Shown here one piece after another: positions 4,505 through 7,801 of a DNA stretch of 32,000 nucleotides (its first letter is position 1; each line of letters opens with the position of its first letter). Source of the DNA: an uncultured archaeon (lineage in GTDB: Archaea; Asgardarchaeota; Thorarchaeia; Thorarchaeales; Thorarchaeaceae); contig CAYHAA010000016.1 in assembly GCA_964354495.1 (NCBI GenBank), positions 38,585 through 70,584 of the forward strand, read 5' to 3'. The translations under genes and the position numbers were made by a program. A model generated the notes under the pieces. The model saw only the letters and a list, made by a program, of their open reading frames with translations, made no database searches and was not told the DNA's origin.

Positions 4505-4633
4505 ATCTATGAGAATGTCCATAGCCTCCATAAGTCTATTCCCAGAATGTGCATTGAAGCCATCAACGATTTGTTTAATTGTAAAGTTTCGGTGAAGTTC
4601 CTTGGACGTAGTGTTCAACGGGGTGAATCCATC

Positions 4634-5014
4634 ATGGGCGATCCTGTAATGGATGCATACACAATGGCGTATAACAGTTCAGGGAACATGATACAAGCCT
4701 TTGGGGTAATTACTGAAGGTGGGCAAGTCCTGTGGCAAAGCAACAACTGGGATCTGACTGCCGATGCCAGTGGCCTCATCTCTGCAGTGAAGTCACGTAG
4801 TCCTGCAGTCACACAGAACAACATTCGCTACTCCACAATGAGATCCACACCTGAGAGTCTTGTCGCCCGCAATGTTCAGGGAAATGGAATCTTGATCCTG
4901 GCCAAGATTGAGGGTCAGAAGTGGGTTGTGGCATGGAGTGCACCGAACGCTCAGCCTGATGGTGTCTATGTCGATGTAGACCGGGCTGCAAAGGCACTCA
5001 AGGGCAGAATTTGA
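4634..5014 (+). CDS. Asgard-type profilin (paralog 1)
   Basis: 126 aa. 'IQAFGVI..GQVLWQSNNWDL...IRYSTMRSTPESLVARNVQGNGILILA' matches the Asgard profilin pattern. SD GGGGTGA at 4620-4626 lies 7 nt before ATG 4634. Confidence 0.85.
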   Translation: MGDPVMDAYTMAYNSSGNMIQAFGVITEGGQVLWQSNNWDLTADASGLISAVKSRSPAVTQNNIRYSTMRSTPESLVARNVQGNGILILAKIEGQKWVVAWSAPNAQPDGVYVDVDRAAKALKGRI

Positions 5015-5051
5015 TGGTGCTGCCCACGTGAGGGGAACTGTAGAATAATAT

Positions 5052-5069
5052 GGGAGAATGATTTCTCCC
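5052..5069. promoter_or_regulatory. Perfect 7-bp inverted repeat (GGGAGAA-TGAT-TTCTCCC) between the two profilin genes
   Basis: Seen directly, just upstream of the paralog 2 SD (GGAGG 5077-5081). Function unknown. Confidence 0.35.
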
Positions 5070-5088
5070 TTGCTCAGGAGGCCGTGAC

Positions 5089-5463
5089 ATGGAGTCTGCC
5101 ATCAGCCGTCAATGGTATCAGCTGTACACGAACAATCCGAAAATACAGGCATTTGCTGTAGCCAAAGGAGACCAGGTCGTTTGGCAGACTGAAAACTGGA
5201 ATCTACTCGACGACATCAAACAGATAGTCAATGCTCCAAAGGAGGAGGCAAGCAAGGTCTCTGTTGGCGGAATCAAGTACAAGCGAATTGCCTCTACCCT
5301 AGATGCTTACTTGGGAACTGCCCCCGATGGCAAGGGGCATCTGTTGATGGCGCGGATAAATGAAGGAGGCTGGGCCATCGCTTGGGCTGAGTCCACTTCG
5401 GTTCCTGAACTGGCACTTGTTGATCTCGCCAAGGCCGCAATACACCTCAGCGGCGATGTATAG
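5089..5463 (+). CDS. Asgard-type profilin (paralog 2)
   Basis: 124 aa. 'IQAFAVA..QVVWQTENWNL...GGIKY...GKGHLLMA' has the QTENW motif of Asgard profilins. SD GGAGG present. Confidence 0.8.
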   Translation: MESAISRQWYQLYTNNPKIQAFAVAKGDQVVWQTENWNLLDDIKQIVNAPKEEASKVSVGGIKYKRIASTLDAYLGTAPDGKGHLLMARINEGGWAIAWAESTSVPELALVDLAKAAIHLSGDV

Positions 5464-5478
5464 TCTAGAATGCGTTCT

Positions 5479-6225
5479 CTATGGGACTGATTCACTTGCG
5501 AACAGAATATCTCGTGTCTTCAAGAGCACATCGCGATATTCTTTTGACCCCAGAGAATAGATCTGTAGCAAGGTCTCATAGATCTTGAGAACTTCCTTAT
5601 CTGCTACATCGCCTTTTACAAGGTCGGCAATCTTCGTTCGCCATTCTGCTTGCATCAACTCGCCCTTCATCACTAACTCTTGGAGTTCCTTACGCTTCTC
5701 CTTGGGAATCTTTAGATCAAAGTTTGCAATCATGGTTGTGATGAAGGACTCCACCATCTTTGCCAAGGTTGATGCTCCACCAGCCCATTCACCCTTGGTC
5801 AAGACAAAGCCCTTTGCTGTGCGACGCCAGTAATCTGTTGTGCGCTTTCCTGTGGTCACGGTTCCATACTTGATGACATATCCGCCTTTTTCCAGCGTAG
5901 GTAGATGGTGATAGACTTGGTTCTTGGATATCTCAATGTCAGGACCACAACAATCTGTGGACAGCTTCACTATCTCGATAACACTGAGAGCATCACGCTT
6001 CAGTTCTCTCACTCTGATGATTTTGTCTCCATTCTTGTCCACGCTTTCTGTGGTCACGGTGTCGTTGACGCCTTCTCTCAAGACCTGTAGAATCTGATAT
6101 CTCACGGGCTCATCCAAGATAACAGCTCGTTCCTGATCTGTTACGAAGACAATCTCTTTCTGCGGTCTTCTTCCCTCGTCCGTTAGAACGATTCCCTTCA
6201 GGCTATCTGTGATCTCATCACCCAT
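5479..6225 (-). CDS. Winged helix-turn-helix (ArsR-like) transcriptional regulator with a C-terminal helical domain
   Basis: 'PVRYQILQVL...LSVIEIVK...SKNQVYHHLPTLEKGGYV...GKRTTDYW' is an ArsR/HTH_20-like wHTH, followed by about 100 aa of predicted helix. Confidence 0.8.
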   Translation of the reverse strand: MGDEITDSLKGIVLTDEGRRPQKEIVFVTDQERAVILDEPVRYQILQVLREGVNDTVTTESVDKNGDKIIRVRELKRDALSVIEIVKLSTDCCGPDIEISKNQVYHHLPTLEKGGYVIKYGTVTTGKRTTDYWRRTAKGFVLTKGEWAGGASTLAKMVESFITTMIANFDLKIPKEKRKELQELVMKGELMQAEWRTKIADLVKGDVADKEVLKIYETLLQIYSLGSKEYRDVLLKTRDILFASESVP

Positions 6226-6243
6226 CTTCGTGTCCCTCGATGC

Positions 6244-6321
6244 TCATTGCTGTCCGTATCGTTCAACGAAGGCACGATATGACTTGATTATGTCAACACG
6301 CCTCTTCGTTTTGGAGTACAT
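6244..6321 (-). CDS. Putative 25-aa small ORF upstream of the wHTH regulator (MYSKTKRRVDIIKSYRAFVERYGQQ)
   Basis: ATG 6321 to TGA 6244, downstream of TATA-like elements (TTTTAAAT about 6353-6360; TTTAAT 6380-6385) and ending 18 nt before the regulator start. Below the ORF-track size cutoff. Confidence 0.35.
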   Translation of the reverse strand: MYSKTKRRVDIIKSYRAFVERYGQQ

Positions 6322-6388
6322 CTGTCTTGTTTAACACTGTCGCCTCTGCACATTTAAAATTATTGGTAAATGCTTAGCCATTAAACCA

Positions 6389-6402
6389 TTTGTCTGGCAA
6401 AC
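6389..6402 (-). promoter_or_regulatory. Operator-like box A (minus strand GTTTGCCAGACAAA) next to TATA-like TTTAAT
   Basis: 12/14 identical to box B when each is read in its outward-facing orientation. Confidence 0.5.
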
Positions 6403-6472
6403 GTTTTCAATATCTCCATATAACAAACTAAATACTCAACATAGTGTTTCTATAGCACCAAAAACTAGTAAT

Positions 6473-6495
6473 GGTTTGTCACACAAACCTTATAT
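6473..6495 (+). promoter_or_regulatory. Palindromic operator-like box B (GGTTTGT-CAC-ACAAACC) abutting TATA-like TTATAT
   Basis: Perfect 7-bp inverted repeat at 6473-6489 occupying the BRE position. TTATAT at 6490-6495 begins 39 nt before ATG 6529. Confidence 0.6.
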
Positions 6496-6528
6496 GTGAT
6501 TGGTGCATACGTCAACACGTGAACTACT

Positions 6529-6636
6529 ATGAATCACAGGAAGAACACTCTCACCTACTATGGAACATGGAACGAAAAGATGGCTCGAGTCTACACACTT
6601 GATGCCATTGGATATGCGTACGTATACAGGAGGTAG
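6529..6636 (+). CDS. Small peptide A, 35 aa (MNHRKNTLTYYGTWNEKMARVYTLDAIGYAYVYRR)
   Basis: First ATG after the TATA-like box. Shares the C-terminal DAIxYAYxYR motif with peptide B. Its last codons contain the GGAGGT SD of peptide B. Confidence 0.65.
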   Translation: MNHRKNTLTYYGTWNEKMARVYTLDAIGYAYVYRR

Positions 6637-6641
6637 AAAAC

Positions 6642-6731
6642 ATGGCACTCGCGAAACAAACAAAGAGAAAGGATGAATCTAGGAAGCAGATCTCTACAGA
6701 TGCTATAACCTATGCATACATGTACAGGTAG
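6642..6731 (+). CDS. Small peptide B, 29 aa (MALAKQTKRKDESRKQISTDAITYAYMYR)
   Basis: Strong SD GGAGGT 7 nt before the ATG. Motif shared with peptide A with synonymous third-position changes. Confidence 0.7.
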   Translation: MALAKQTKRKDESRKQISTDAITYAYMYR

Positions 6732-6737
6732 ATTGCT

Positions 6738-6851
6738 ATGAGTAGAGAAGACGAAACTACCATGTCCGACTGCCGCCAGGTTGTCTTGATGGAAGCTCCG
6801 ATGCGCCCATCCGTGACCACAGAAGAGGTGCTCCTGTGGGAAGCCACTTGA
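6738..6851 (+). CDS. Small peptide C, 37 aa (MSREDETTMSDCRQVVLMEAPMRPSVTTEEVLLWEAT)
   Basis: ATG 6 nt after the peptide B stop, with AGGT SD-like sequence at the end of B. Acidic, and lacks the A/B motif. Confidence 0.45.
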   Translation: MSREDETTMSDCRQVVLMEAPMRPSVTTEEVLLWEAT

Positions 6852-6991
6852 GCGCTTCCATACTCTTTCTAATGGATATTCACAATAGATTCAAGGCATT
6901 CTTCTAGATTGCTCTCTTATTGACCACTAATTCTTAACACTTGGCAGCACCCGCAGAAATACAAATCGTGAGATCTGACCGGCTTTTGCAA

Positions 6992-7801
6992 TCACTTCTT
7001 GAAGACCATCTGGTAGAAGGTTTCGTTCATGATATAGGTGATTTCGACATTGGACGCCTTCTCAGGGAGGAACTCAAGGGGTGGACGTGCTGCGAAGAGT
7101 GAGTTCGTCTTGATGATCTCCTTTCCCTTCTCAGTATTCCTCATTCGTGGTGACAGTCCCTCATCTATCACGATTACCATGCCCTCGCTTCTAGCTATCC
7201 TCAGCATCTCCTTCAGAGCTCCATGGATATCCGAGAAGGTGTTGATACCCCCCGTATGAAGTACAATATCGAAGAAATTGCTTTGATATGGGATGTTGAA
7301 CACACTACCGTGGGTCAGGCTGGCATCGATCCCCAACTCTGCCATTTTTCGTTTAGCCACGCCCAGCATTCGTGTTGAGAGATCCATGCCATGAAGGTTG
7401 AATCTGCCCATCTGGCCCTTGAACCGGTTGTGAAGAGCGATAAAATTGGCTGCTGTACCGAGGCTGACATCGATAATTCTGGTCGGCCCTTCAATGGGAA
7501 CGAACATAGCGAGTCGTTCTCGCTCCTTCATCATATTGATCCCAAGCCAGTCATCATACTGCTTGACCAATTCATCGTATGACTCGGCCATCTCATCATA
7601 TTTCTTGATCCACTTTGCATCCTTTGCCCCTATAGGGGGATAGACAAGTGAGAGTATCTCACTATGTATGGGCCACCCATGCCCCTTCTCACAGATTATC
7701 GGCCGCTCTTCGACACTCTCATTCGATGCAGACTCTCTGCTGAATTGAAGCTTCTTTCCGCATTGAGGGCACTTGAGAGCAGCAAGATGAGGTTCTTTCA
7801 T
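6992..7801 (-). CDS. Class I SAM-dependent methyltransferase (UbiE-like) with an N-terminal zinc-ribbon (Trm112/RlmA-like) domain
   Basis: N-terminal CPQC...CEKGH. Motif I 'IIDVSLGTA', 'GMDLSTRML', and post-II 'IPYQSNFFDIVLHTGGIN'. Confidence 0.85.
   Translation of the reverse strand: MKEPHLAALKCPQCGKKLQFSRESASNESVEERPIICEKGHGWPIHSEILSLVYPPIGAKDAKWIKKYDEMAESYDELVKQYDDWLGINMMKERERLAMFVPIEGPTRIIDVSLGTAANFIALHNRFKGQMGRFNLHGMDLSTRMLGVAKRKMAELGIDASLTHGSVFNIPYQSNFFDIVLHTGGINTFSDIHGALKEMLRIARSEGMVIVIDEGLSPRMRNTEKGKEIIKTNSLFAARPPLEFLPEKASNVEITYIMNETFYQMVFKK

Follow-up and report, generated by a model that had tools for sequence, protein, structure and literature searches.

A conserved, lineage-specific operon of three microprotein genes in Thorarchaeota

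Results

The locus and its three small genes

Three tightly packed small open reading frames, A, B and C, lie between a divergent gene for a wHTH regulator and a convergent methyltransferase gene in the window, which is the whole stretch of archaeal DNA that was analysed, 32,000 nucleotides long. Genes and elements of the cassette, with positions in the window and strand, are:

5479-6225, minus strand: gene for the wHTH regulator, 248 aa, divergent from the cassette; candidate repressor
6352-6407, minus strand: candidate promoter of the wHTH gene, made up of blocks conserved in 19 orthologous intergenic regions, with a TATA-like element at about 6352-6362, AACCATT at 6384-6390 and CAAAC/GTTTT at 6398-6407
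6473-6489, plus strand: operator-like palindrome GGTTTG-N5-CAAACC, with perfect 7-bp arms, abutting the TATA box
6490-6496, plus strand: TATA box TTATATG; TTATATA/G in 19/19 orthologues, 33-40 nt 5′ of the ATG of the first gene
6519-6523, plus strand: SD-like GTGAA, 5 nt 5′ of the A ATG; orthologues keep GTGA(T/A), about 6 nt from the ATG
6529-6636, plus strand: microprotein A (a-type), 35 aa, pI 9.8, ending DAIGYAYVYRR (LDAIGYAYVYRR)
6642-6731, plus strand: microprotein B (b-type), 29 aa, pI 9.9, ending TDAITYAYMYR (STDAITYAYMYR)
6738-6851, plus strand: microprotein C (c-type), 37 aa, pI 4.2, ending TTEEVLLWEAT
6852-6870, plus strand: candidate terminator, GCGCTTC ... CTCTTTCT, after the TGA of C

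All three frames lie where an earlier note on this DNA had placed them, and the codons quoted in it are correct. The ten codons common to A and B differ at synonymous third positions; GGAGGT (6629-6634), described as an SD for B built into the end of A, sits within the two final Arg codons of A and its stop codon, 7 nt 5′ of the B ATG; and the TATA-like box said to precede A is TTATATG, 33 nt upstream of the A ATG. What did not stand is the description of the N-termini of A and B as unrelated. They are homologous, most members of both types beginning MALAK or MALTTN, and A in the window has a diverged version of this N-terminus. A and B are paralogous basic microproteins, encoded in tandem and leaderless, and have been maintained as two distinct types, an a-type of 33-36 aa ending YRR and a b-type of 26-31 aa ending mostly YR. 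ORF C is conserved too and is separate from A and B (alignment A3); it is placed in this second conserved family because it ends TTEEVLLWEAT. The exact sequence of C is on record at NCBI and that of A is absent from the protein collection; A and B are probably lacking from the genome annotation.

Motifs and predicted shape of the products

The A/B ending follows the pattern [ST]T[DE]A[ILV]x[YH][AS][YF]x[YF]R(R)-stop, which the logo of 83 distinct A/B peptides extends to [KR]x[IVY][ST]T[DE]A[ILV][TGA][YH][AS][YF]x[YF]R(R)-stop with the first Ala invariant. The C family ends EVLxxEAT-stop, in relatives (T/S)x(E/D)EVL(L/M/A)(L/W)EAT. A six-frame regular-expression scan of the window's own genome (3.3 Mb, 47.7% G+C) found 5-7 motif matches, all at most two codons from a stop, where 0.01-0.03 would be expected by chance from six-frame residue frequencies; the reversed genome, scanned for the A/B motif, gave none. 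None of the larger proteins and ORFs scanned in this genome has either motif, and the idea that the microproteins mimic a domain of a larger protein was rejected on that ground.

The A/B peptides are hydrophilic and basic (GRAVY -0.7 to -1.0, pI about 10, net charge +3 to +8), with neither a signal peptide nor a double-glycine leader, and the C-type peptides are acidic to neutral (pI about 5.6). Searches of Pfam, NCBIfam, PHROGs, PADLOC and PDB sequences returned no match to A, B or C, ESM Atlas look-ups with A and C gave no usable match, and Rfam covariance models run over 6150-7050 on both strands matched nothing up to E = 1. No paper describing the A/B/C family was found in the literature, and with the curated family libraries likewise empty, the remark that no described archaeal family has this motif holds. 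A likeness of the B N-terminus (AKQTKRK) to the histone H3 tail, seen by eye, was dropped after a profile search of PDB sequences to E = 10 came back empty.

AlphaFold2, given B-TAG-C as the in-frame reading that occurs naturally and 27 naturally paired rows, predicts the B motif as a helix (pLDDT about 94) and EEVLLWEA of C as another (pLDDT about 75), the remainder of the model being of low confidence (pTM 0.32); helix is predicted only over the last 11-12 residues of the peptide. One face of the predicted B helix carries Ala, Ala-Tyr and Tyr-Arg, a small-xxx-small arrangement flanked by aromatics, and as modelled it looks like a docking helix. A complex prediction for A, B and C together scored 0.02, which speaks neither for nor against binding. 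Compensatory changes among the three helices were considered as evidence of contact and set aside: the helix differences between cassette classes are single events that do no more than define the classes and therefore give no evidence of coevolution.

Junctions and selection

The upstream stops of the cassette are each embedded in the SD of the next gene. The end of A, AGG AGG TAG, is the SD of B, and the end of B, AGG TAG AT, is an SD-like site for C; the a-gene stop lies within AGGAGGT(A/G)A and the b stop before c within AGGTAGAT. This b stop is TAG in 28 of 33 cassettes, the spacer between b and c is 6 nt in 26 of 31 junctions, and that between a and b ranges from 4 to 7 nt, 6 nt being commonest. 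Where b is the last gene its YRR ending is written TAC AGG CGC TGA, and because the Arg-Arg ending is kept as AGG CGC with no cistron following, selection on it acts at the protein level and not solely through the SD. The c stop is TGA in 32 of 33 cassettes, with GCACTTC and a T-rich run next; in relatives a T4-T6 run falls within about 20 nt of GCACTTC after the TGA, and the run in the window is weaker. By its sequence the cassette shows the build of an operon, with a putative promoter (palindrome, TATA box and SD), three apparently translationally coupled cistrons and a T-rich tract last.

Estimates of dN/dS, from Nei-Gojobori counts over 19 distinct orthologues of the window's syntenic class, were 0.28 for gene a, 0.20 for gene b and 0.43 for gene c as a whole and 0.21, 0.12 and 0.18 respectively for their C-terminal motifs. 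Shifting the reading of these columns to frame +1 or +2 gave 0.6-2.7. The proposal that selection acts on the peptide is therefore upheld, the motif values for the A-type and B-type comparing with values of about 1 or higher in the other frames. Synonymous sites are close to saturated (pS about 0.58), and it is therefore the protein and not the DNA that is conserved. All three products are under purifying selection, and A-B-C is almost certainly a real coding operon.

Distribution and locus classes

Profile searches across Asgard genomes bear out the conservation of the motif, which is kept in hundreds of small open frames within one archaeal family. A 59-peptide profile matched 74 of the 85 other Thorarchaeota genomes (same family) searched, 1-12 times each and each time in an open frame of about 30-45 aa, and there were no matches in 314 genomes from 32 other families of the phylum; a six-peptide profile matched 35/36 same-family genomes and 0/24 others, all these counts being samples in which absence means not found in the genomes searched. 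Among those genomes the operon is specific to the Thorarchaeota family. In relatives the a- and b-type genes are nearly always in tandem, with a c-type gene (35-40 aa) next in about three quarters of loci, and in divergent genera the order a-(b)-c persists while the endings vary, YA[YF]xTVVR being one example. A profile search of 1.84 billion proteins gave 53 matches, nearly all of 29-40 aa. Two proteins considered as relatives, P0001 (1927 aa) and P0010 (229 aa), were rejected as repeat proteins whose scores are summed weak matches to ..STDA...

The window's own genome (G000) has five cassette loci, named here by contig:

C16, this window: A, B and C
C17: all three genes, with products of 34/35 aa (a), 28 aa (b) and 35 aa (c, ending EEVLMLEAT)
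C3: a and b, no c
C9 (L065, G000:C9:80000-82500): degenerate a-type ORF ending ..STDAIAYAFLSSLR, 5′ of an MFS gene (MFS_1/MFS_3) on the same strand
C1 (L064, G000:C1:547300-550300): intact a-type ORF, decayed b and a further decayed remnant, 5′ of an MFS_1 gene on the same strand

The motif of the C1 b-type ORF is broken (..STLAITTMHFRR), and the cassette loci on C1 and C9 are decaying. At least four syntenic classes were distinguished by their neighbours:

Class (i), that of the window: divergent wHTH gene, profilin-like genes, convergent methyltransferase gene and TrmB
Class (ii), that of C17: superoxide-reductase-like ORF (recognised by eye), Zn-ribbon membrane protein and GNAT-like gene
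Class (iii): small wHTH gene and PolX-like gene
Class (iv): flanked by an ATC-hydrolase-like gene and an MFS gene

Cassettes with A and B and no C are conserved, as at the C3 locus and in the orthologues L008, L020 and L030, and C is for that reason not obligatory for A and B.

Promoter, operators and regulator

The arrangement AATGGTTTG-N5-CAAACC directly abutting TTATATA/G is common to 19 orthologous upstream regions, and the transcription start is placed near 6518 because of these conserved upstream elements. On the wHTH side there are conserved AACCATT and GTTTG elements and a TATA-like box, AACCATT being the reverse complement of AATGGTT, the start of the cassette operator. The exact palindrome followed by TTATATG has only one further copy in the genome, at C1:548710, in the class-(iv) cassette locus. 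Another operator, GTCACA-N3-TGTGAC then TTCATyTTGTG, is common to class (ii), C3 and C9, and it also precedes a bactofilin gene on C4, which suggests a single regulon spanning the sister cassettes and this cytoskeletal gene. At the C4 site (L063, G000:C4:55500-57300) the operator is at C4:55832-55846 and the 413-aa bactofilin-domain gene at L063:422-1663, the upstream order being GTCACAnnnTGTGAC, then TTCATyTTGTG, then a TATATATAC box.

The link of the cassette with the wHTH gene was confirmed by synteny. A homologue stands head-to-head with an A-B-C cassette in the loci of 13 relatives, two of them from other genera, and the pairing is found as well in Thorarchaeota MAG loci that have enough flank; it is kept across class-(i) loci, including those of the two other genera. 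We infer that the wHTH protein is the regulator of the cassette, and on this layout it seems rather likely that the cassette is regulator-controlled, although the CAAACC beside the TATA box could simply be a BRE. Matches of the protein to HTH_20, PadR and ArsR are weak and sub-threshold, and its AlphaFold2 model has a mean pLDDT of 52, too low to define a fold. PADLOC Csa3 models match it weakly, over the wHTH portion only (E = 4.5e-6, profile positions 144-251/305), and the CARF part of Csa3 is not matched.

The wHTH gene also has an apparent leader of about 100 nt (6226-6350, minus strand). Blocks in it, such as TCGTCAAGCGACTCGGAT..GGGAATCGTTCGT on the plus strand, are well conserved in most orthologues and not in the window's subgroup; they could be structured RNA or further protein-binding sites. 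Beyond the wHTH gene is an adjacent pair of profilin-like genes (4547-5463, plus strand, 155 and 124 aa), the first with a weak match to Pfam Profilin (E = 8.6e-4) and the second with none, and a profilin-like homologue adjoins the wHTH gene in at least seven relatives' loci.

Discussion

The A-B-C finding is real, strongly conserved and lineage-specific. Our best guess as to its role, held tentatively, is a regulator-controlled set of cytoplasmic microproteins acting through C-terminal docking helices. The wHTH protein would bind GGTTTG-N5-CAAACC, overlapping the BRE/TATA region, and repress the cassette, so that the cassette would be on only under certain conditions. A, B and C would then be made in near-equal amounts, remain cytoplasmic and serve as binders by way of their short conserved C-terminal amphipathic helices, that of A and B presenting an AxxxA-Y-x-Y-R face ending in Arg and that of C an acidic EEVLxxEAT. 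Docking might be mutual, giving a small hetero-oligomer, or directed at one target particular to the lineage and common to the products. The N-terminal tails, which are variable and charged (basic for A and B, acidic to neutral for C), might touch nucleic acid or modulate that target. Through their different operators, paralogous cassettes would place the same module under different signals. That the products form an intracellular helix-docking module is likewise a tentative reading. In a bolder version, in our judgement unlikely, the cassette would be a new kind of archaeal microprotein system, in which three co-translated peptides under a dedicated repressor jointly modulate a central Thorarchaeal machine through their docking helices. 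That machine might be chromatin or RNA, the translation apparatus, the proteasome or the Asgard cytoskeleton, and for the last there are weak hints in the two profilin-like genes beside the regulator and the bactofilin gene with the operator of the sister cassettes. A second possibility of this bolder kind is that the conserved pre-stop segments are archaeal ribosome-arrest peptides acting in cis.

Known systems share parts of this picture. Divergent pairs of the PadR, ArsR or MarR type also have a head-to-head regulator, a palindrome over the core promoter and related elements on the regulator side. Here, however, the target is three microprotein genes and not an efflux pump or enzyme, and the regulator has sub-threshold HTH scores and a C-terminal helical half with no family. 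A short conserved C-terminal segment on a variable, disordered chain is likewise seen in the HbYX (hydrophobic-Tyr-X) tail of PAN and in the tail of the ribosomal stalk protein aP1. The PAN C-terminus is L-Y-R and B in the window ends M-Y-R-stop, which could make B a free HbYX peptide that opens the gate of the 20S proteasome, but this is highly improbable, since the defining positions of HbYX are not kept in the A/B family: 51 of 83 distinct A/B peptides end RR and only 30 end R, so that Tyr is not consistently the penultimate residue; YRR is the ending of every a-type peptide; T, Q or K precedes Tyr about as frequently as a hydrophobic residue does; and some members end TVVR, FGR or RNW.

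Among the other explanations, it is possible, but unlikely, that the cell exports A and B as leaderless peptides, whether as signals or as cationic antimicrobials, with C as an immunity or chaperone peptide. Tandem paralogous small genes in multi-peptide operons are known from aureocin A70 (aurABCD), enterocin L50A/B and garvicin KS, and the cassette resembles them in having tandem paralogous genes of about 30 codons in one transcription unit, cationic leaderless products and a regulator nearby. The tandem paralogous ORFs of 30-50 aa characteristic of leaderless bacteriocins are thus present in A/B, as paralogous cationic peptides of 26-36 aa in one operon with the regulator alongside, and an MFS gene lies downstream on the same strand at two of the five loci (MFS_1 at C1, MFS_1/MFS_3 at C9). 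The known peptides, however, form membrane-active helices, hydrophobic or amphipathic, and their loci include genes for ABC export and immunity, whereas A and B are strongly hydrophilic (GRAVY about -0.9) and have no hydrophobic or amphipathic membrane-active body, signal peptide or GG leader. They are accompanied by no conserved exporter and no dedicated export or immunity genes, the MFS genes standing at two minor loci only, and the third product of the cassette is an acidic peptide unrelated to them. In neither of the two main cassette classes does a transporter gene adjoin the cassette, the next gene being convergent, and the chromosomal positions are stable and syntenic. Sequence similarity of A/B to aureocin A70, enterocin L50A/B or garvicin KS was not found.

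The earlier note had likened the layout to that of signalling peptides and RiPP precursors, and for this the context offers no support: neither a maturase nor a leader nor a dedicated exporter was found, and the peptides are hydrophilic, with a short predicted helix. As RiPP or cofactor precursors, A and B would have their Tyr/His-rich C-terminus crosslinked or excised by an enzyme encoded elsewhere. A and B are indeed short and multi-copy, and their [YH]-A-[YF]-x-[YF] aromatic triad is invariant beside the C-terminus, much as PqqA, MftA, biarylitide and cittilin precursors have conserved aromatic residues at the modified site; the likeness to PqqA and MftA extends to a length of 20-35 aa, to occasional multiple copies and to invariant aromatic and acidic residues near the C-terminus. 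Unlike pqqA and mftA, which directly adjoin their radical-SAM and RRE genes, the cassettes have no recurrent radical-SAM or RRE gene beside them, and their peptides do not match PqqA or MftA in sequence. When neighbours were clustered over 31 loci and the own-genome flanks were scanned with Pfam, no maturase, RRE, peptidase or exporter was found to recur beside the cassettes in any locus class; radical-SAM, YcaO, P450, peptidase and dedicated exporter genes were likewise not recurrent, the locus classes differing in their neighbours. The flanking genes are wHTH, methyltransferase, TrmB, profilins, superoxide-reductase-like (by eye), GNAT-like, PolX-like, MFS and Zn-ribbon, none of them recurring across the classes. 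The scheme also has no place for the third conserved peptide, C, and one subfamily has xTVVR in place of YxYRR. Precursors processed in this way are accordingly quite improbable.

We give similarly small credence to a toxin-antidote pair in which A and B, the basic members, would attach to nucleic acid or the ribosome and be neutralised by the acidic C. The opposite charges of A/B and C would suit such a pair, as would tight co-translation giving a fixed product ratio, several copies per genome of which some (C1, C9) are decayed, and the apparent repressor control of expression. Against it, several species conserve A-B cassettes that lack C, the loci are syntenic from genus to genus and not mobile, and no known toxin or antitoxin family was matched in Pfam, NCBIfam or PADLOC. 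Slightly less probable still is the proposal that the peptides are cis-acting leader or arrest peptides, whose last 10-13 residues stall the ribosome at the stop and so tune the next cistron or a downstream gene. The concentration of conservation in the pre-stop residues, with varying N-termini, would fit this, and so would conservation as peptide and not as DNA, the stop codon lying within the next SD, and the position of two loci upstream of MFS genes. In classes (i) and (ii), however, there is no downstream gene, a T-rich tract being followed by a convergent gene; the N-terminal MALAK is conserved as well; and the scheme would need three leader peptides in series, for which we know of no precedent.

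Eukaryotes have no nearer known relatives than the Asgard archaea, and to our knowledge almost nothing is known of the small proteins of this group. The cassette is a lineage-wide, multi-copy, strongly constrained microprotein trio with its own candidate regulator and with no homologue in curated libraries, and its role, if worked out, would give archaeal cell biology a new class of small-protein module. It is also a test case for gene finders, which now miss the A, B and C genes or fuse them with TAG read as a residue. The fused form is seen in the six matches of 69-90 aa from the profile search of protein collections (P0005, P0011, P0018, P0022, P0042 and P0046), which join B, C and sequence beyond as B-Q-xx-C fusions, gene-caller artefacts on Thorarchaeota contigs in which TAG is read as Gln (Q).

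B and C share a frame in 29 of 33 cassettes, and a B-C fusion made by read-through or by pyrrolysine was therefore considered and rejected. PylS scored at most 20.7 bits in the own genome, where the cut-off is 178, and a scan that listed only 14 tRNAs showed none with the anticodon CUA; four of the 33 junctions are out of frame, five of the 33 b-c junctions have TGA or TAA, and the 6-nt spacer is the preferred coupling distance. ARAGORN did report a tRNA-SeC with anticodon TCA in the own genome (73844-73934), and for that reason some TGA codons are probably decoded as selenocysteine.
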